The translations under genes and the position numbers were made by a program. A DNA stretch of 37,957 nucleotides from an uncultured archaeon (GTDB taxonomy: Archaea > Asgardarchaeota > Heimdallarchaeia > Heimdallarchaeales > Heimdallarchaeaceae). How positions within the stretch are numbered: position 1 is the stretch's first letter; the number at the start of each line of letters is the position of its first letter. Of this stretch, positions 26,028 through 34,084 are shown one piece after another. The notes beneath the pieces were generated by a model that had not been told where the DNA came from, made no database searches, and saw nothing but the letters and a program-made list of their open reading frames with translations. The stretch lies in contig CAZJUB010000022.1 in the NCBI GenBank assembly GCA_964549075.1, forward strand, positions 1 through 37,957, given 5' to 3'.

Positions 26028-26723
26028 CTAAATGCTAATCTTACTTTCTATTCTTTTTCTATCCTGTTGCTTTATTTCGTTCAAACCTACAAGCATATCT
26101 GGATTGAATTTACTCCAGTTGACACAATTTTCATGATACCAACGAAAAGAAAGATTTTCTTGATAATATGATGGTTCACCTAACCTCAAAGAATCTCTCT
26201 CAATGTAATTTTTACATTTATTGCATTTTGAAACTCCACTTTTAGCATACTCTAGTTTCCATTTGTTTTCTCTTACTTTCATAAATAGATTTTTGGTTGA
26301 TTTTTGAATTATTTTTTCTAGAATTTCTTTTGGATTATTTCCATCTAAATCATTTGAATCGATTTTCAAATGAAAAATATCAAAATTCCCAACAAAAAAT
26401 ATTAGATTTGCAGGTTTGGTGTATTTGAGATCACCATTAATTTTTACATGTTTAGGTAAAATCTTATTTTTCATTATATATCTAGCTAAGGTAGATGAAA
26501 GCATTTCTGATAACTGTTTTTTATCATATTTCTGTACTTGACCAGTTTTGATCCTGCCGTAAACGTTTCTGATCACAGTTCTTTCGATTTCTTCAATATA
26601 TTCCCGTTTTTTGATAACAAAGAAAAATCCCTCAGGAATTTCCTTTTCAATTTTCATTTGTATGAAATTTCTGGGATCTATGGAATATCCCCATTCTGTG
26701 TCTTCATCTAGATTTATTTTCAT
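26028..26723 (-). CDS. Protein with C-terminal PARP-type zinc finger and unknown N-terminal domain
   Basis: EYAKSG.SKCNKC...I....LRLG...WYHENC...GL.E....D...I matches zf-PARP (C-x2-C...H-x2-C). Confidence 0.85.
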   Translation of the reverse strand: MKINLDEDTEWGYSIDPRNFIQMKIEKEIPEGFFFVIKKREYIEEIERTVIRNVYGRIKTGQVQKYDKKQLSEMLSSTLARYIMKNKILPKHVKINGDLKYTKPANLIFFVGNFDIFHLKIDSNDLDGNNPKEILEKIIQKSTKNLFMKVRENKWKLEYAKSGVSKCNKCKNYIERDSLRLGEPSYYQENLSFRWYHENCVNWSKFNPDMLVGLNEIKQQDRKRIESKISI

Positions 26724-28346: not shown

Positions 28347-28877
28347 GTGATGAAAATGCGTAAACAAAGAATAATAAAGGATTACGATGCCCTCAGAAAA
28401 TTGCACAAAGAAGGGGTTATTGCCCAAGTTAAAGCATTTCCTGGAAAGAAGAAATCTATGGATCATTTAGCTGTTGGTTTCATCGGACCAAAAGGCACAC
28501 CATATGAAGGAGGAAAATATAAATTGGAAATATTCTTCGGATCAAATTATCCCTACAAACCTCCATTTGTAAGATTACATACACCAATTTTCCATCCTAA
28601 CTTTTGGCCAGATCCAAAGGAATATCCTGGTAAACGAAATATCTGCTTGGCATTAGTAGATAATGAATTGATTGGTAAACATGATGGTTGGTCTCCATCC
28701 AAAAATATTACCTCGGTTATTTATTCTATCTTAGCTATGTTCAACATCGATGGAGCATATGTTAATCCTAAAGATGTTTTCAATAAAAAAGCAGCAATTG
28801 AATTTCTGAATGATAGGACCAAATTCATAAAGAAAGCAAGAGCTGTTAATAAGAAATTTGCAAATTCATTTTGGTGA
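28347..28877 (+). CDS. Ubiquitin-conjugating enzyme E2
   Basis: RIIKD, GPKGTPYEGG, YPYKPP, IFHPN, catalytic ICL, WSP motifs. Confidence 0.95.
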   Translation: MMKMRKQRIIKDYDALRKLHKEGVIAQVKAFPGKKKSMDHLAVGFIGPKGTPYEGGKYKLEIFFGSNYPYKPPFVRLHTPIFHPNFWPDPKEYPGKRNICLALVDNELIGKHDGWSPSKNITSVIYSILAMFNIDGAYVNPKDVFNKKAAIEFLNDRTKFIKKARAVNKKFANSFW

Positions 28878-28914
28878 AAATCAATTAAGTATTTTAATTT
28901 ATGGAGTTTAAAAG

Positions 28915-29634
28915 ATGTCAAATGATGAAAATGAGCTTCCAGAAGAATATAAGTTTCTATTAAAGAAGATAGAAGCATTGGAAAAAGCGCTGGAATTTTA
29001 CAAAATTGAAAAAGTCGTTAAAGATACTGAAAGAGAAGAAGAAATAAGTGCAGAAACAATCACTGAAGAAGATCTCCGAATAGAACCAAAACCTGAGATT
29101 GTTATTAATCCAAAAGCATACCTCAAACTAGCAAAGCATTCATTAACTTATGCTAATCCATCTATCCCGAAAAGTGACTGGGTAGAAGTAATTGGACTTC
29201 TTACAGGAAAAATTAGAAATGAAGAAACACCTTTAGAGCAGATATTTGTTGAAGATTATTGGCCAGTCGATCAAGGTGATGCTGTCAGTGTAGAAATTGT
29301 TGATCAAAAAATATTTTCGGAGATCTTTGAGAAAAAAAACAGCGAGCATTTCATCATCGGTTGGGCTCATTCTCACCCAAGTTACACTCCTTTTCTTAGT
29401 GGAGATGATCTCAGAACACACCGTCGATACCAGACTTTTTGGAATAAATCGATTGCTTTAGTTATAGATCCTCTAATGATAGCACCTAACAATTATGGAA
29501 TAGGTGTGTTTAGAATTCATAAAGATAAACAAAATTATTACGAATTATCTACTGAAATACAAGGAATGAGTAGTGAAGCATGTTTTGAATCAATTAACAT
29601 GTTTATGAAGAATCAACTAAATATAGAAGAATAA
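28915..29634 (+). CDS. JAB1/MPN+ (JAMM) metalloprotease, Rpn11/CSN5-like
   Basis: EVIGLL.G, IGWAHSHPSYTPFLSGDD (H-x-H-x7-S-x2-D), ALVIDP. Confidence 0.93.
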   Translation: MSNDENELPEEYKFLLKKIEALEKALEFYKIEKVVKDTEREEEISAETITEEDLRIEPKPEIVINPKAYLKLAKHSLTYANPSIPKSDWVEVIGLLTGKIRNEETPLEQIFVEDYWPVDQGDAVSVEIVDQKIFSEIFEKKNSEHFIIGWAHSHPSYTPFLSGDDLRTHRRYQTFWNKSIALVIDPLMIAPNNYGIGVFRIHKDKQNYYELSTEIQGMSSEACFESINMFMKNQLNIEE

Positions 29635-29638
29635 TTTA

Positions 29639-30751
29639 TTGGATTGTAGAGAATTGGAATTAAATAACTGGAAAACCTATTTAGCAATCACTATCATCGG
29701 AGTAACAATAGGTGTACTTTTTTTAGCAATAAATGGTAATTTGCCAACTGCTCTAATGGTTTTTTTCATTACTCTGTACCTAGTTGTTGCTTTAAAATTC
29801 CTACTTGAAAGACATCACTATAAAAAACATAATTCTGTCTTAGCTAGTACCCAATTTCTCTTACTCCCTTATGTAGTTCTGTTAATGGGAAATTATATAT
29901 CTCCTATAGCTTTGACAGTAGATATCTATGTTATAAGTGTTAATTCAACTGATGTTTTCTTCTTAAATTTAATCTCAATTTCGTTAATAATTCCAGTTAT
30001 AATTCTCTCTCTGCTCTTTAGCAAATATTATTCAAATAGATGGCCTGCAATGGCCATTAATAGAAAAATCAAAAGAGGAAGGAAATTTCCTTTCTTATTT
30101 CATTCTGTATTCATTATTACCTTCTTAATCGGATTTTTCATTAATTGGCAAATTGATTTTGTTTGTTTCATTTTTGTTATTCTTTATTTTGTCTACATTT
30201 TTAGGTACTTCATTGTAGTAGCAATTAACAAATCCCGAAAAGAAGTGAGAGTGAGTGCAAGAACTGCAACAAGAGCTTCTAGTACAAGATCTACAAGTGC
30301 ATCTCAGAGAAGTGGTCAAGTTCCTGTAGCTTCTAGAAGTGGTCAAAGATCAGTTTCAGCTCGTTCCACTAGTGCAACTTCTTCATCTAGAAGAAGTAGT
30401 TCAGCAAGAATCGATCGCGGAATTGATGCTACAACAGCGTCAAGAAAAACCGTTAAAACAACTAAAACTACAACACCAGTCTCTAAAAGTATCTTTCCAA
30501 TTGGTACACCAAAGAAAGAGGAGATGAAATGTATAATTTGCTACATGGATTTTGATAAAAAAGATACAAGAAGAATTATTCTGTGTCCACATTGTAAATA
30601 TCCAGCTCACGAAGACGAATTCTTAAACTGGTTCAATAAATCAAGATTATGTGCAAGATGCAACCAACCTATCTCAACTAAATATGTAAACAATCCTAAA
30701 TATAGAATATCTGTAAAAGTTTATATCGAAAAAGTGATTGAAAAGATATAA
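29639..30751 (+). CDS. Polytopic membrane protein with C-terminal RING-like domain (putative membrane E3 ligase)
   Basis: About 6 TM helices in first ~195 aa, Ser/Arg/Thr linker, C-x2-C-x14-C-x2-C-x4-H-x2-E-x3-W-x6-C-x2-C at 30530-30661. Confidence 0.8.
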   Translation: MDCRELELNNWKTYLAITIIGVTIGVLFLAINGNLPTALMVFFITLYLVVALKFLLERHHYKKHNSVLASTQFLLLPYVVLLMGNYISPIALTVDIYVISVNSTDVFFLNLISISLIIPVIILSLLFSKYYSNRWPAMAINRKIKRGRKFPFLFHSVFIITFLIGFFINWQIDFVCFIFVILYFVYIFRYFIVVAINKSRKEVRVSARTATRASSTRSTSASQRSGQVPVASRSGQRSVSARSTSATSSSRRSSSARIDRGIDATTASRKTVKTTKTTTPVSKSIFPIGTPKKEEMKCIICYMDFDKKDTRRIILCPHCKYPAHEDEFLNWFNKSRLCARCNQPISTKYVNNPKYRISVKVYIEKVIEKI

Positions 30752-30816
30752 AAGTTACAAATGCCAATAATTTAAAAAATAAGTGTATATGAACATTAAA
30801 AGAAGAAGGTTTAACG

Positions 30817-31410
30817 ATGAGGACAATAACACAGCTCTCTACTGCGTTTTTTCTTTCACTACCATTGTTTGGTGTAGCTATTTACTTCTTTATCCAGAAT
30901 GATAATGATAGGGGAAAGGTTTTCATTTTCATAGCAATTTTCGCTCTTTTATCACTCATCATTGTGATACGTAGTATCTACTATCTTAGGCATAGTGCGA
31001 CTTTTAATGAAATCTTTTTCGTATTTATTATACCTCTAGTTCCTGTTACACTCGTTCTGATACAAATTCTATTAGGAATCTATAATGATCCAATTCCAAT
31101 AGTTACTCAGAGTATTTTTGACATTGGTAGTACAAGCTATAGTTTTTACATTAATGTAATTGATTTTATTCTTCTTCCATTTTACATCATTGCTAATTTC
31201 CTTTTACTCAGAACATTTATACGCTATCCTTTCATAAGATTGAAAGGTACTAGCGAAAAAGGAATCCCTCCAAAACTATTTGGATTTTTGTTGATGTTAA
31301 TTATTCCAGCGACTTATATACTGTTATCCTTCTTCTATCTGGAAAATCTATTTCTCATGGTTTTTGGAATAGTTTATTTCTATACTGGACTTCTAACATT
31401 ATTTGTTTAA
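30817..31410 (+). CDS. About 6-TM membrane protein, probable paralog of the upstream RING protein's membrane domain
   Basis: Similar length and hydropathy; shared F[FY][LI]N[LV]I...L[IL]P..I...R[WY]P segment. Confidence 0.65.
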   Translation: MRTITQLSTAFFLSLPLFGVAIYFFIQNDNDRGKVFIFIAIFALLSLIIVIRSIYYLRHSATFNEIFFVFIIPLVPVTLVLIQILLGIYNDPIPIVTQSIFDIGSTSYSFYINVIDFILLPFYIIANFLLLRTFIRYPFIRLKGTSEKGIPPKLFGFLLMLIIPATYILLSFFYLENLFLMVFGIVYFYTGLLTLFV

Positions 31411-31427
31411 ATTAAATTAAAAGAAAA

Positions 31428-32147
31428 TTATTTCGGTCTTTTTTGTTTTGGCTTTTTTTGTGTAGGAAGTTTTTGACTTGGAGTTTTTTGTTTTGGTTTC
31501 TTTTCCTCAATTATTTCAGTTATCTCTTTTGTAGCAGGAGCTTCTCTCTCTCTTTTCTCTTTTATATTCTCTTCTTTGGGGATAGTTCTTGATTCTTGTT
31601 TCTCAGTTTCTGAAAATTGATCTTTGTTACTGGTCGGAGGAATCTCTTCTTTCTTCTCTCTTTCCTCCTTCTCCACAGCTTTCGAATCTAAGATCTCAAT
31701 CTCTCTAAATTCCTCTTTTCTAGGTGGTGCAGACTCTTTTTTCTCCTTTTTCCTAGATTCTTCATCATCAGGAATTATGTTTTTTTCTTTAGTTTTCTCG
31801 AATTGATTCTGCTTTGGAATTTTTGATTTTGGTATTTTTGATTTAGGAATGCTTTTACTGCTTCTTTTAGTTTCAGTGAATCTTTCTGAGCTTGGTTTTT
31901 TAGATTGAATCTGTTCCTCAAAAATTCTCTTGTTTGTTCTTCTGTTTTGTTTTAGTTTAGACTTACTAGGAGCTGGAGTCTTATTGTGTATTTTTTCTTT
32001 TTTAGGAGGTAAATTAATTTCTTCACTAATATGTTGTTTAGGGATTTTAGAGGAAGGTGTCTTTTGTTTAGGAATCTTTGAATCAATTGGATGTTTATGT
32101 TTTGGTCTCTTTGAAGAAGGTTTCTTTTTCTTAATTTTCTTGCTCAT
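31428..32147 (-). CDS. Lys/Glu/Pro/Ser-rich intrinsically disordered protein with SKIPK/KTP repeats
   Basis: ATG 32147 preceded by AAAGGTGA RBS; 239 aa, 4x SKIPK, 3x KTP; strong purine-rich coding-strand bias. Confidence 0.75.
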   Translation of the reverse strand: MSKKIKKKKPSSKRPKHKHPIDSKIPKQKTPSSKIPKQHISEEINLPPKKEKIHNKTPAPSKSKLKQNRRTNKRIFEEQIQSKKPSSERFTETKRSSKSIPKSKIPKSKIPKQNQFEKTKEKNIIPDDEESRKKEKKESAPPRKEEFREIEILDSKAVEKEEREKKEEIPPTSNKDQFSETEKQESRTIPKEENIKEKREREAPATKEITEIIEEKKPKQKTPSQKLPTQKKPKQKRPK

Positions 32148-32388
32148 ATGTAAGTCACCTTTAGTTTGCCTTTCAATTGGATTGAGAAAGTCTACTGATT
32201 TTATACCATTTTTTTTTATTTTCTCATTCAATTCTGCTAATTATTTTGAAGTTATCGAGATTTTAGATAGTTTTGAACTGAGTTTCTATTTATTTTCCTA
32301 AATAATAATGTTTTTTATACTGAAATAGATAATTTTTTAATATTCCGATGTAATATAAGTTAGTTGTATTAAAACAGGATTGATTAAT

Positions 32389-32739
32389 ATGAGCGATGAA
32401 TTTGAAGAATTATCCTTTGATGATGAAGAAGAAGAATTTGAAGAAGAAGAGATTATCTCTAAAACACCTGCAAAATCCAAAACTCCTGCAAGTAAGAAAA
32501 TAAGCGTTTATTTCCAAAGCACAATTGGACCAAGTCCAAAACAAGAAAAACTCGTTGTAGCTACAGATGCACCAATCGGTGATATCAAATACACTGTTAG
32601 CCAAATATTTGGTTTACCTCCAGATGAGTTTCACTTATCACATGCAGGAAGAACCTGTGATCCCGATGATACTTTAGAAGATTATGGTGTTGAAGATGGA
32701 GATACAATCTTACTTATCCCTGTCTCTACAGCTGGATAA
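32389..32739 (+). CDS. Ubiquitin-like modifier with acidic N-terminal extension, ending ...IPVSTAG
   Basis: Beta-grasp pattern ISVYF...IGDIK..VSQIFGLPP....L.HAGR......TLEDYGVEDGDTILL matches ubiquitin's GIPP...L.FAGK...TLSDY.I....T..L; adjacent to E1. Confidence 0.88.
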   Translation: MSDEFEELSFDDEEEEFEEEEIISKTPAKSKTPASKKISVYFQSTIGPSPKQEKLVVATDAPIGDIKYTVSQIFGLPPDEFHLSHAGRTCDPDDTLEDYGVEDGDTILLIPVSTAG

Positions 32740-32795
32740 GAAAAACTATTTCTCTAGAAAATGATGATAGTTTCTCTTTTCTTTTCATTTTTTTT
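32740..32795 (+). terminator. Hairpin plus oligo-T terminator after the Ubl gene
   Basis: AAACTAT/ATAGTTT stem followed by TTTTCTTTTCATTTTTTTT. Confidence 0.45.
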
Positions 32796-32824
32796 AATAA
32801 ATTTAATATACTAAATATTGAGAG

Positions 32825-34084
32825 ATGCATATAATGAGTAAAAAAACTGATACTGAGTCTAATTTTTTTAACGAAGCTTTTTCAAAAGAAGAAAGAACGA
32901 GGTTAGATAGACAATTAAGGTTACCTGGATGGAATCAGAAAGCTCTGAAAGAATCTACTGTAGTTGTTGTAGGAATAGGAGGATTAGGAACAGAAGTTGC
33001 TAAAAATCTAGCTATGGCTGGAGTTGGAACCTTACATCTGATAGATTTAGATATTATCGAATACTCAAATTTGAATCGGCAGATTCTTTTTTCAGATGCA
33101 AACGAAGGTGAACCGAAATCCAAGGTAGCAGCAAGAACTCTAAAACAAATTAATCCTTATAGTAGATATATCTGGCATCATTCGAACCTTGAAGATATCG
33201 ATCCTGAAATCTATGTTTCAGCTGACCTTCTTATATCTGGTTTAGACTCAGTTGCTGCAAGAGGTGAACTCAATAGAAGAGCTGTTCAATATAAGAAACC
33301 TTTGATAGATGGTGGAACAGTGACTTACTACGGACATGTTTATACGTATTTTCCAGGTAAAAATGCTTGTTTACAATGTGATCCACAACCGGAAAGAGAA
33401 AGAGAGACCTTAGCAGCATGTACTTTGGTGGGGATTCCAAGAAAAAGATCTCATTGCTTACTCAAAGGACAACTGTTCTTTGAATCAAAGCATAATAGAC
33501 CTCCTGATACTTCAGTAAAGGAAGAGATGGATATTGTACTTGAATATGCAAACAATTTAGCAAAAGAATATTTTCCACAAGAAAGCTTATTTTCTATTGA
33601 TGAAGCGGTAAAGATGGTTGATCAACATGATCCTACGATTATTACAATCAATGCGGTAATTGCTTCTCTTCAATCACAAGAAGCTTTGAAAATACTTCAC
33701 CACTTGAAAGGCATCGAACTTGGTTCTATAAATCTCGAATACGCCATTTATAATGGATTAATTGGAAAATTCTTCTACTTTGAGAAACCTCCTAATAAGA
33801 AATGTACTCTTTGTGGTGAAAATGCAGCTGTAATAGAAAAGCTGAAGTTACCCAGAACAACAACTGTGGAAAATATTCTATCAATAATACGAAATAAAGG
33901 ATATACCTATGATTTAGACTTTCTACCATCATTCTGGAGAATGGATATGAAAGATCCAGAGGAAGTGAAGCTACATCTAACCTTGGGAGAACAAGGAATT
34001 CGTAATTATGAAACATTCTATATTAGTGGTGTTAATAAAGATAAGAAAGAAGTGGATTTTTATATCCAACTCCAATTGATATGA
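32825..34084 (+). CDS. Ubiquitin-like activating enzyme E1 (ThiF adenylation domain, catalytic-Cys domain, C-terminal ubiquitin-fold domain)
   Basis: RLDRQ, GIGGLG, D.D.IEYSNLNRQ, DGGT, Zn pairs CLQC/CTLC, catalytic CTLVGIPRKRSHC (compare Uba3/Uba2 CT....PR...HC). Confidence 0.93.
   Translation: MHIMSKKTDTESNFFNEAFSKEERTRLDRQLRLPGWNQKALKESTVVVVGIGGLGTEVAKNLAMAGVGTLHLIDLDIIEYSNLNRQILFSDANEGEPKSKVAARTLKQINPYSRYIWHHSNLEDIDPEIYVSADLLISGLDSVAARGELNRRAVQYKKPLIDGGTVTYYGHVYTYFPGKNACLQCDPQPERERETLAACTLVGIPRKRSHCLLKGQLFFESKHNRPPDTSVKEEMDIVLEYANNLAKEYFPQESLFSIDEAVKMVDQHDPTIITINAVIASLQSQEALKILHHLKGIELGSINLEYAIYNGLIGKFFYFEKPPNKKCTLCGENAAVIEKLKLPRTTTVENILSIIRNKGYTYDLDFLPSFWRMDMKDPEEVKLHLTLGEQGIRNYETFYISGVNKDKKEVDFYIQLQLI

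Follow-up and report, generated by a model that had tools for sequence, protein, structure and literature searches.

An Ala-Gly-ended ubiquitin-family protein and its putative conjugation module in Asgard archaea

The closest described counterpart of the locus analyzed here is an operon of Candidatus Caldiarchaeum subterraneum, in which the same five roles are found together (the ubiquitin CsUb, an E1, an E2, a RING protein, and CsRpn11). This homologous cascade has been reported to conjugate (PMC5654768), and CsRpn11 has been reported both to mature and to deconjugate, with the CsUb variant G77A being processed far more slowly than G78A, yet still cleaved (PMC6043591). In Asgard archaea, an E1/E2/RING/JAMM operon has been treated as a forerunner of eukaryotic ubiquitylation, and its tag as a di-glycine ubiquitin. 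ESCRT-linked ubiquitins of Heimdall AB_125 and Odin, as well as a Helarchaeial Ub/E1/E2/RING cascade, have been described (PMC9192718; 10.1101/2023.07.25.550441). These ubiquitins come from the same phylum as the protein described below, and one of this type is encoded even in the same genome. SAMPs and Urm1, together with UbaA and JAMM1, are likewise archaeal beta-grasp modifiers with a ThiF-type E1 and removal by a JAMM enzyme. SAMPs end in Gly-Gly, and their conjugation is described as requiring no E2 or E3 (PMC11354881).

The window, meaning the whole stretch of 37,957 nucleotides analyzed, encodes a ubiquitin-like protein (Ubl) that ends in Ala-Gly. A literature search returned no mention of such an end in Asgard ubiquitin-like proteins; supplements of Asgard genome papers may list these proteins. 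The reading favored here, with a probability of about 0.78, is that the Ubl represents an Asgard-wide modifier of the ubiquitin family, with Ala-Gly as its reactive end and a cascade of its own, running in parallel to the GG-ended ubiquitin.

Gene, fold and family of the Ala-Gly protein

The Ubl gene occupies positions 32389..32739 of the forward strand, where an ATG at 32389 opens a frame of 116 codons closed by TAA at 32737..32739. An in-frame TTG at 32380, upstream of the ATG, would give three extra residues and was rejected as the start, as orthologues begin at the ATG. A search of sequencing runs listed none with RNA. The 3' end reads CTT ATC CCT GTC TCT ACA GCT GGA TAA (I-P-V-S-T-A-G-stop), and the codons thus bear out the initial annotation, which had described a C-terminus with one terminal Gly and no propeptide. 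It had also described some 35 N-terminal residues as an acidic tract with a second stretch behind it, and residues 1-35 (32389..32493) do form a bipartite tail, predicted to be disordered, in which an acidic F-x-x-L part precedes two S-K-T-P motifs and K-K. A beta-grasp core follows at residues 36-110 (32494..32718), in line with the AlphaFold2 secondary structure, and adenylation and conjugation presumably take place at residues 111-116 (P-V-S-T-A-G; 32719..32736).

Placement relative to ubiquitin, SUMO, NEDD8, and UFM1 was based on profile and fold rankings. The Pfam ubiquitin profile (PF00240) matched residues 57-109 with 33.6 bits (cut-off 25.4; E 3.3e-08), the Rad60-SLD profile barely exceeded its cut-off (24.4 against 23.8 bits), and the ThiS profile gave no match at E<=0.01. 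An AlphaFold2 model built on a 37-row alignment (mean pLDDT 77.2, pTM 0.60) showed a beta-grasp fold over residues 37-111; most core positions had a pLDDT of about 88-94, and residues 1-20 and 31-33 stayed below 50. The best Foldseek match was the Caldiarchaeum ubiquitin (6fno_D, also 6fj7; E 1.3e-08, 31% identity, TM 0.80 on the target); TM values of 0.85-0.92 were obtained for human ubiquitin chains in the PDB. The 50 best matches comprised ubiquitin, ISG15, SUMO, and UBL domains, with SUMO1 at rank 41 and no UFM1, ATG8, or ATG12 among the matches listed. The PDB entries 8hm1-8hm3 ("Putative ubiquitin") were set aside as relatives, because the one paper found to cite 8HM1 and 8YPT concerns ubiquitin homologues of Bacteroides. 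A profile of the beta-grasp core found 2327 proteins at E<=1e-3.

The alignment of residues 58-110 with ubiquitin 18-70 places residues 115 and 116 opposite ubiquitin 75 and 76, so that Ala115 is in register with Gly75. In place of the Gly-Gly that typifies the ubiquitin family, the protein thus carries Ala-Gly, with the Ala invariant. UFM1, ATG8, and ATG12 have a single terminal Gly after a non-Gly residue, and a likeness to these modifiers had been proposed from the sequence. This likeness was not borne out: the C-terminal tail has the length and register of that of ubiquitin, the fold and profile matches are of the ubiquitin type, and the adjoining E1 resembles UBA2, UBA3, and UBA1, so that no specific relation to the three emerges. 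Judged from its sequence, the Ubl is a distinct, putatively conjugated member of the ubiquitin family.

The earlier description "SUMO-like" holds only as an analogy: both proteins are ubiquitin-fold modifiers with a flexible N-terminal tail, here disordered in the AlphaFold2 model, and the E1 and E2 encoded here score about equally against SAE2/UBC9 and against ubiquitin/NEDD8 enzymes. In contrast to SUMO, which ends in Gly-Gly, the Ubl ends in Ala-Gly and sits beside a single-chain E1 of 419 amino acids, and its Rad60-SLD match is weaker than its match to the ubiquitin profile. The motifs of its tail (acidic F-x-x-L and K-S-K-T-P) also differ from the SUMO consensus.

The differences from the two nearest archaeal ubiquitins are equally clear. 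While CsUb has Gly-Gly followed by a 9-residue propeptide and lacks a long N-terminal tail, the Ubl has Ala-Gly and no propeptide. The GG-ended Asgard ubiquitins are 78 amino acids long without an N-terminal tail, end in ...R-T-x-G-G in all 19 sequences compared, and have as genomic neighbors the genes of ESCRT-I, -II, and -III as well as that of a compact E1 of 335 amino acids; with the Ala-Gly proteins they share the presence of zero to few residues after the terminal Gly, while the phyletic ranges differ. The genome of the window holds two ubiquitin-family genes, three ThiF E1s, four UQ_con matches, and two JAB matches. Its GG ubiquitin, which ends in GG-Ser, is encoded on another contig (C18) as part of an ESCRT cluster that also supplies a separate E1 of 335 amino acids. 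Pairwise BLASTP gave no alignment between the two ubiquitin-family proteins of the genome, while hhalign paired them with a probability of 96.7% (E 3.4e-10, 23% identity) and brought the Ala-Gly tail into register with the ...RT-x-GG tail of Asgard GG ubiquitin. Eukaryotic ubiquitin scored 36.2 bits to the GG type and 22.8 bits to the Ala-Gly protein. The third ThiF E1 is of the MoeB/SAMP type. Given a parallel GG ubiquitin and this further E1, the IP-x-S-x-A-G tail is probably an identity mark that insulates the Ubl pathway from the others.

Conservation of the C-terminus and the N-terminal tail

The Ala-Gly end is no quirk of one genome. The pattern P-x-[ST]-x-A-G was present in 95 of 98 Heimdall-type homologues, the exceptions being one truncated, one frameshift-like, and one ending in ...STAD, and in all 120 Loki-type homologues among the matches listed. 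Among the species loci it occurred in 56 of 57, with the 57th interrupted by a contig end, and residues I110, P111, S113, A115, and G116 were invariant among 37 diverse sequences. The IP-x-S-x-A-G ending is hence almost invariant across Heimdall-type and Loki-type relatives, far above chance. Conservation of the terminal Gly among orthologues had been set beforehand as a test of the modifier reading, and, the exceptions named above apart, this residue proved invariant in both sets.

Such conservation bears on a rival explanation in which the protein is conjugated just like ubiquitin, Ala-Gly being a frozen accident without an insulating or kinetic role and the N-terminal tail a mere spacer. 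In a Loki-type family (f20), the GG-ubiquitin query matched in none of 135 genomes while the Ala-Gly protein was found in 120, so that an obvious partner to be insulated from is missing there and insulation from GG ubiquitin is not a universal reason for Ala-Gly. The cleavage of CsUb G77A by CsRpn11, albeit slower (PMC6043591), is also compatible with an accident, and in tandem precursors the tail does serve as a linker. On the other hand, no reversion from Ala to Gly was seen in about 270 sequences, although one base change suffices, and no variation affects either the IP-x-S-x-A-G tail as a whole or His171 of the E1, the residue facing P111 and S113 in the modeled complex. All these genomes should, moreover, hold GG-ended carriers of the SAMP/MoaD type, as the third ThiF E1 seen here suggests, and a spacer would drift, whereas the motifs of the tail persist in both Heimdall-type and Loki-type proteins. 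The accident is therefore considered unlikely, though it retains appreciable weight.

Unlike the motif itself, what comes after the terminal Gly varies. Some genes stop there, and others add a variable stretch of 1-13 residues, as in 53 of the 95 Heimdall-type proteins and at 20 of the 56 species loci. A stop or variable extension after an invariant Gly is the pattern of a processed end, putatively a conjugatable one. Two metagenomic proteins, P0099 (three units) and P0100 (two units), resemble the eukaryotic polyubiquitin precursors in being head-to-tail repeats with each unit ending in the reactive motif. Here a unit comprises a tail of its own (35-60 residues), the Ubl, and Ala-Gly; the units differ in sequence, and two extra residues stand at the very end. 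Such tandems are rare, with two full-length proteins and a fragment (P0155) among 150 representatives listed.

The initial annotation had argued that the modifier is made mature and that the JAMM enzyme would accordingly act as a deconjugase rather than a maturase. The first part holds for this gene, which is a monomeric, single-copy gene in its genome and would be translated in mature form. The second part does not extend to the family, in which the extended proteins and tandem precursors imply a need for a maturase. As the JAMM gene lies beside mature Ubls in 26 loci and beside extended ones in 11, the enzyme most likely does both jobs.

The N-terminal tail is conserved as well. F5 was invariant and P27 and K31 were at least 90% conserved among the 37 diverse sequences, the motif of Phe, two acidic residues, and a hydrophobic residue occurred in 86 of 93 Heimdall-type and 118 of 120 Loki-type tails, and at least two K-x-P motifs were present in 83 of these Heimdall-type and in all 120 Loki-type tails. 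An acidic F-x-x-L part followed by two K-x-P motifs is thus a phylum-wide feature of these sequences. Retained on the mature tag, the tail is probably a docking element or an acceptor element for chain formation.

Two other roles for the tail motifs were discarded. S-K-T-P was dropped as a proteome-wide acceptor motif, as it was not enriched in the proteome of the window's genome (12 observed, 11.3 expected). The P-[ST]-x-P motif, reported to bind UEV domains (PMC10936438), was not seen in the tails that were read by eye. A Lys/Pro/Ser-rich protein of 267 amino acids with four S-K-[TI]-P motifs is encoded divergently from the Ubl gene on the reverse strand (31428..32231). It was found between the genes for TM197, a membrane protein described below, and Ubl only in the clade of the window, as a clade-specific insert, and in this genome the only ORFs with at least two S-K-[TI]-P motifs were this protein, the Ubl, and one ORF of another contig (C122). 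Its membership in the Ubl module is uncertain.

The neighboring enzymes and their distribution

The genes for the Ubl, an E1, an E2, a JAMM protease, and a RING-like protein all lie within 28347..34084, on the forward strand. The E1 (419 aa; 32825..34084) gave a ThiF match of 191 bits, and its best solved relatives were SAE2/UBA2 (1.5e-34), UBA3 (2.4e-33), and UBA1 (5e-32), with UBA5 reaching only 2.6e-13. The NCBIfam model E1_like_apg7 matched at 2.2e-08, a remote likeness to ATG7, and the SAMPActivE1UbaA model scored 87 bits, far under its cut-off of 450. Cys199 aligned with the Cys of the P-G-C-T-I-R-N stretch of UBA2, and like the Gly-rich loop, NLNRQ, D141, and two CxxC pairs it was invariant among 28 orthologues. 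A catalytic Cys in the E1 and precursor forms in the modifier family are also features of the Caldiarchaeum operon.

Structure prediction of the E1 with the Ubl core gave ipSAE values of 0.71, 0.73, and 0.73 in three runs, as compared to 0.00 for the best of three controls; the mark applied is one that 116 of 157 solved complexes pass, as do 2 of 215 mismatched pairs. At least 95% of the contacts agreed among the runs, the partner pLDDT was at least 89, and the Ala-Gly tail was modeled inside the adenylation site, where Ubl residues 108 and 110-116 contacted the nucleotide loop (50, 52-55) and residues 139-143, 163-171, and 186-193 of the E1. As the two make a textbook pair, the score may be explained by a likeness to solved E1-ubiquitin complexes.

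The E2 (176 aa; 28347..28877) had a UQ_con match of 94.5 bits, and its HPN motif and Cys aligned with those of solved E2s (Ubc13-like 2r0j, 7.6e-17; UBC9, 7e-16). The Rpn11-like JAMM metalloprotease (239 aa; 28915..29634; JAB 50.5 bits) had Caldiarchaeum CsRpn11 (6fju, 3.4e-13) as its best solved relative, with H-S-H-P...S-x-x-D aligned. By alignment, the catalytic residues of E1, E2, and JAMM are predicted to be intact. The presumed E3 (370 aa; 29639..30751) is a membrane protein whose C-terminal part is a RING-like Cys/His domain and which also has a basic linker rich in Ser and Arg. Pfam RING profiles matched it below their cut-offs (17.4 and 17.1 bits), while its orthologues retained the CxxC...CPxC...H...CxxC end. 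Hydropathy gave three transmembrane segments, and three to five in eight orthologues. With at least three such segments it differs from the small, soluble RING protein of Caldiarchaeum. In Heimdall-type lineages, the module further includes TM197 (30817..31410, forward strand), a six-helix membrane protein. Its gene followed the RING gene in 33 of 37 complete loci and was absent from Loki-type loci. Its AlphaFold2 model reached a pLDDT of 89.2, and it matched no Pfam or NCBIfam family and no PDB structure by Foldseek at E<=0.001, with a best Atlas match of 0.85 that gave no lead.

Of the 57 Heimdall-type loci, 37 had E1, E2, JAMM, and transmembrane RING genes adjoining the Ubl gene, and nine further loci had the E1 before the contig ended. 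The remaining 11 lacked an E1 in the available flanks, at least seven of them with at least 3 kb on the available side, so that some copies appear to be unlinked. The same order of Ubl, E1, E2, JAMM, and RING-like genes was observed in Loki-type loci. The module was near universal within families, occurring in 24 of 30 genomes of f1, 19 of 22 of f5, and in f20 at the frequency given above for the Ubl. From these gene neighborhoods, the five-part module appears to have been kept across Asgard archaea. The proposal of a separate modifier class is supported by the dedicated enzymes in synteny and by the absence of a BLASTP alignment to GG ubiquitin.

Bacterial operons of E1, E2, JAB, and Ubl genes act in phage defence (10.1101/2023.09.26.559546), and the module could by analogy be an antiviral conflict system like bacterial Bil or CBASS-Cap2/Cap3, tagging viral rather than cellular proteins. 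Beside the operon, Loki-type loci include paralogues with an Ala-Gly Ubl fused to either a HerA-like ATPase or a VWA domain. Both domains are common in defence systems. Yet a near-universal module that is syntenic within families is unlike patchy defence islands. PADLOC, with its database of 2023, returned generic E1-domain matches (best 7.2e-19) and weak JAB matches, and no match for Ubl, E2, RING-like protein, or TM197, and the neighbors of the module in the window are of the housekeeping type (MscS, CSD). An antiviral role is accordingly considered improbable.

Slighter still is the chance that the Ubl is a non-conjugated Ubl-domain adaptor, or a ThiS/MoaD-like sulfur carrier merely adenylated or thiocarboxylated by the E1. 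Sulfur carriers are common among beta-grasp proteins next to ThiF enzymes, a summed ThiS match was obtained for the tandem P0099, and Loki-type loci also encode Ubl-domain proteins of 266-269 amino acids without an Ala-Gly end. But the fixed partners speak against this reading, namely the E2 with its HPN motif and Cys together with the RING-like protein and the Rpn11-like JAMM. So do the catalytic-type Cys and UBA2/UBA3-like build of the E1, the lack of a ThiS match for the Ubl itself, and a fold nearest to ubiquitins. An adaptor would not require its last Gly to be invariant and brought to the end by a stop codon or trimming. The fixed E2 and RING-like partners and the eukaryote-like E1 likewise set the module apart from the SAMP system.

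Proposed pathway and significance

In the conjugating pathway favored here, the adjoining UBA2/UBA3-like E1 would adenylate Gly116 and then carry the Ubl on Cys199, from which the E2 of the module would take it over. The membrane-embedded RING-like protein may steer it to lysines of membrane-proximal targets, and the Rpn11-like JAMM would take it off again, and would also trim the precursors of relatives with C-terminal extensions or tandem repeats. The slowing of CsRpn11 by G77A speaks against this pathway, in that an Ala-Gly substrate would need an adapted JAMM. It also makes the penultimate residue a candidate for a switch of specificity.

These sequences indicate that the tag encoded by the Asgard operon is a separate family with a fixed Ala-Gly end, a conserved N-terminal tail, some polyprotein precursors, and some fusions. 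The choice of archaeal protein for reconstitution work changes as a result, since the more eukaryote-like GG ubiquitin sits elsewhere, with the ESCRT genes, and proteomics based on di-Gly remnants would miss Ala-Gly conjugates. With R88 as the last Arg, trypsin would leave about 28 residues of this Ubl, and chymotrypsin or Asp-N 7-12 residues with ...S-T-A-G at the end. The finding also raises the testable question of how parallel ubiquitin-like pathways stay apart.

A broader and rather doubtful extension is that two or three ubiquitin-type pathways, each insulated from the others, operate in one Asgard cell, the operon and its membrane RING ligase having a modifier class to themselves, with IP-x-S-x-A-G as the code for a co-evolved E1 and JAMM, and the N-terminal tail as a docking and acceptor module with chains on its lysines as in SUMO2/3. 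If true, the diversification of modifiers with specificity encoded in the tail, polyprotein precursors, and ligation by a membrane-anchored RING protein in an ERAD-like manner would predate eukaryotes, and eukaryotic ubiquitin would derive from the GG-ended, ESCRT-linked branch and not from the tag of the operon.

Ubiquitin-like protein with an Ala-Gly end

The frame at 32389..32739 (+) opens with ATG and encodes a ubiquitin-like protein (Ubl) of 116 residues that ends ...I-P-V-S-T-A-G and is directly followed by TAA, confirming the single terminal Gly without a propeptide that was proposed in the initial annotation. The disordered N-terminal tail of about 35 residues was likewise recovered: residues 1-35 run from an acidic tract to two S-K-T-P motifs and K-K, and residues 1-20 and 31-33 had a pLDDT <50 in the AlphaFold2 model (37-row alignment), where a beta-grasp fold spans residues 37-111 (mean pLDDT 77.2, pTM 0.60). 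Residues 57-109 matched the ubiquitin family of Pfam (33.6 bits against a cut-off of 25.4), and a marginal pass was found for Rad60-SLD (24.4 against 23.8). The top Foldseek match in the PDB was the ubiquitin of Candidatus Caldiarchaeum subterraneum (6fno_D, E 1.3e-08, 31% identity), followed by eukaryotic ubiquitin at ~25% identity, with SUMO1 at rank 41. As HMMER aligned ubiquitin 18-70 to Ubl 58-110, P-V-S-T-A-G matches the last six residues of ubiquitin in length and register, and Ala115 is placed at Gly75 in the standard ubiquitin numbering. The Ala-Gly-ended Ubl is a real feature.

Conservation of the terminal Gly in orthologues, on which the initial proposal depended, was observed almost throughout. 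A homology search with the Ubl gave 98 proteins under Heimdall-, Kari- or Hodarchaeal names, 95 of which carry P-x-[ST]-x-A-G, either ending exactly at Gly (42) or continuing for 1-13 residues (53); of the three exceptions, one is truncated, one is a frameshift-like fragment, and one has ...STAD. Across 37 aligned, diverse members, residues I110, P111, S113, A115, and G116 were invariant. A scan with one genome per species gave 57 Ubl loci, which are partly non-independent of the motif because one of the two patterns used to find them held it; the motif was present in 56 of these (stop directly after Ala-Gly in 36, an extension of 1-5 residues in 20), and the remaining locus is truncated by the end of its contig. 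The 98 Heimdall-type homologues, as well as 902 Loki-type homologues, were gathered by sequence similarity and not by that pattern. P0078, of 79 aa and on a 730-base contig, was the sole family member observed in which another residue takes the place of the terminal Gly (...S-T-A-D-A-F). Its N-terminal tail is missing as well, and the sequence could represent a decoy or a pseudogene or result from a sequencing error.

The family extends far beyond Heimdall-type archaea. A core profile of the Ala-Gly type (A2) found 2327 proteins at E<=1e-3 among 1.84 billion representatives, with multi-repeat polyubiquitin-like proteins frequent among the best matches. Over 400 genomes of the phylum, it had matches in 196 at E<=1e-6, including 24/30 genomes of family f1, 9/12 of f4, 19/22 of f5, and 120/135 of the Loki-type family f20, whose genomes carry 3-5 copies each; at the same threshold, none were found in f7 (0/12), f12 (0/19), and f14 (0/6). 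The 902 homologues of an f20 member (E<=1e-5) are named Promethearchaeota or Lokiarchaeota, and all 120 of those listed end in IPAS[TS]AG, with the stop exactly there in 113.

Maturation, tandem precursors and the N-terminal tail

The initial annotation had also proposed that the modifier is born mature, leaving the JAMM protease as a deconjugase rather than a maturase. This holds for the gene in the window, which needs no trimming, but not for the family, where short extensions and tandem precursors occur. Specifically, the metagenomic proteins P0099 (372 aa) and P0100 (250 aa) consist of three and two head-to-tail units of tail plus Ubl, respectively, each ending in Ala-Gly, with two additional residues at the extreme end of each protein. 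The units differ in sequence and hence are not assembly repeats, and since every unit keeps its own N-terminal tail after cleavage, the tail would be part of the mature tag. These precursors are an archaeal counterpart of polyubiquitin genes. An apparent fragment of another such precursor is P0155.

The JAMM gene adjoins mature Ubls in 26 loci and extended Ubls in 11, and the simplest reading is that one JAMM would perform both maturation and deconjugation. In PMC6043591, the JAMM protease CsRpn11 of Caldiarchaeum is described as doing both, and the G77A variant of its ubiquitin, which gives an Ala-Gly end, as being processed much more slowly than G78A, while G77V was unprocessed. The slow processing of G77A together with the fixed Ala of the present family suggests an adapted protease, a slower removal, or both.

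The composition of the tail was shared by Heimdall-type and Loki-type members, as seen for an F-acidic-acidic-hydrophobic motif (86/93 and 118/120 tails, respectively), at least two K-x-P motifs (83/93 and 120/120), an acidic first half (92/93 and 119/120), and a basic second half (81/93 and 120/120). It might, at a guess, serve as a docking element or provide acceptor lysines. No enrichment of S-K-T-P was found in the source proteome (12 seen against 11.3 expected). Divergent from the Ubl gene, a 267-aa Lys/Pro/Ser-rich and probably disordered protein is encoded at 31428..32231 (-) and carries four S-K-[TI]-P motifs, where the Ubl tail has two; only one other ORF in the genome, on contig C122, has at least two. 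Its relatives share 32-64% identity, and only in the clade of the window is the gene placed between the membrane protein gene TM197 and the Ubl. The protein could be a substrate or a partner; alternatively, low complexity might explain by coincidence why the motif is shared.

In some relatives that keep the Ala-Gly end, whole domains replace the N-terminal tail. One of these is a HerA-like ATPase (DUF87/HerA_C) and another a VWA domain; a zinc-ribbon with a coiled-coil region also occurs, as does a region that appeared Roadblock-like by eye, with no match in Pfam. The domain-fused members are L094 8075..9829 (-) and P0205; L098 9694..11454 (-); P0176, P0212, and P0238; and P0188, and two of the genes lie within ~2 kb of a Loki-type operon. 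Because the end is retained, whole enzymes might be conjugated through it. Additionally, Loki-type operons have nearby proteins of 266-269 aa (L091 8067..8873 (+), with counterparts in L095, L096, and L100) whose C-terminal domain is related to the Ala-Gly Ubl; as they end in ...A-L-I-P-S plus a few basic residues, they lack the reactive end, and by sequence appear to be non-conjugatable Ubl-domain paralogues.

Operon organization and predicted E1 activation

The window encodes, in this order, an E2 (28347..28877, +), the JAMM (28915..29634, +), a multi-TM protein whose C-terminal domain is RING-like (29639..30751, +), the six-helix membrane protein TM197 (30817..31410, +), the Lys/Pro/Ser-rich gene, the Ubl, and an E1 (32825..34084, +). 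E1, E2, JAMM, and TM-RING genes were all present in 37/57 related loci, 33 of which also have TM197; the E1 was present before the contig end in nine further loci, and 11 had none in the available DNA. Hod-type and Loki-type loci share one gene order (Ubl, E1, E2, JAMM, TM-RING), and the block from E2 to TM197 was relocated upstream in the clade of the window.

The closest relatives of the E1 were SAE2/UBA2 (1.5e-34), UBA3 (2.4e-33), and UBA1 (5e-32). Its Cys199 aligns to the catalytic Cys of UBA2, in the stretch P-G-C-T-I-R-N, and the Gly-rich loop, NLNRQ, D141, two CxxC pairs, and C199 were invariant in 28 orthologues. The E2 keeps HPN and the Cys. For the JAMM, the nearest relative is CsRpn11, to whose metal motif it aligns. 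The RING-like domain scored below the Pfam cut-offs; 8/8 orthologues examined share the Cys/His pattern and have 3-5 TM segments. TM197, directly after the membrane RING gene in 33/37 complete Heimdall-type loci, was modelled confidently (pLDDT 89.2) with a beta-hairpin at residues 95-113. Its invariant residues are R52, Y56, N64, R132, and the stretch R136-Y137-x-F139-I140-R141, and no match was found in Pfam, NCBIfam, Atlas or Foldseek-PDB. Outside the operon, a 231-aa protein at 26028..26723 (-) has at its C-terminus a zinc finger of the PARP type (PF00645, 48.1 bits against a cut-off of 39.3) with no catalytic domain attached; this domain, the DNA-nick sensor of eukaryotic PARP and DNA ligase III, occurs here in an archaeon.

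Binding of the Ubl by the E1 was supported by a predicted complex of the E1 (28-row alignment) and the Ubl core (15-row alignment), with an ipSAE of 0.71, 0.73, and 0.73, where the best of three controls reached 0.00, although for such a textbook pair the pass may reflect likeness to solved E1-ubiquitin complexes. The ipSAE mark was reached by 116/157 solved complexes and 2/215 mismatched pairs; contacts agreed between runs by at least 95%, with a partner pLDDT of at least 89. Ubl residues 108 and 110-116 contacted the E1 at its Gly-rich loop (50, 52-55) and at 139-143, 163-171, and 186-193. Among the 28 orthologues, G164, G170, H171, and Y173 were invariant, and the E1 of the second ubiquitin has Asn in place of His171; a pairing of His171 with the Ubl tail is a tentative lead.

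A second ubiquitin and the relation to known systems

Two genes of the source assembly (3.23 Mb, 89.7% complete) belong to PF00240, the Ala-Gly Ubl and a 78-aa ubiquitin on contig C18 that ends ...R-T-K-G-G-S. The latter belongs to a complete ubiquitin-ESCRT cluster (L060 3454..10775) with two Snf7 genes, Vps4, the Vps22/25-like genes Vps25-like and EAP30, a 470-aa UEV-Vps23-Vps28 fusion, and a compact 335-aa E1, corresponding to the ubiquitin-ESCRT cluster described in PMC9192718. The genome also encodes a third ThiF gene, four UQ_con matches, and a second JAB gene. BLASTP gave no alignment between the two Ubls at E<=100; hhalign matched the two types at 96.7% (E 3.4e-10, 23% identity) with the tails in register, pointing to homology at the profile level. 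Eukaryotic ubiquitin was closer to the GG type (36.2 bits against 22.8 for the Ala-Gly Ubl), and 19/19 GG-type sequences from other genomes end in R-T-x-G-G plus 0-4 residues. The two E1s share 41% identity across the adenylation domain, the operon E1 having ~65 additional residues past Cys199 and a longer C-terminus. The GG query matched 135 of the 400 genomes: both types occurred in Heimdall-type families, the GG type alone in f7, f12, and f14, and the Ala-Gly type alone in f19, f20, and f21, where the GG type was not found with a single-protein query. Both Asgard types have a common first strand-loop motif (S-T-I-G-P in A2, S-A-I-G-G in the GG alignment A5), which is not known from eukaryotic ubiquitin.

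Pfam, Foldseek, and E1 comparisons revealed no specific relation to SUMO, UFM1, ATG8, and ATG12, with which the Ubl had been compared in the initial annotation. SAMPs and bacterial defence Ubl systems were also rejected as specific relatives on profile, fold, E1, and defence-model comparisons. The system belongs to, and would work like, the eukaryote-like archaeal ubiquitylation operons, with conjugation and an insulating role of Ala-Gly being putative. Unlike the present system, those described have a Gly-Gly end and a small soluble RING protein. In the openly available main texts searched, Asgard and Caldiarchaeum ubiquitins have di-glycine ends, and no mention of an Ala-Gly class was found. 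The Ala-Gly end is a variation on the known eukaryote-like type of archaeal ubiquitylation.
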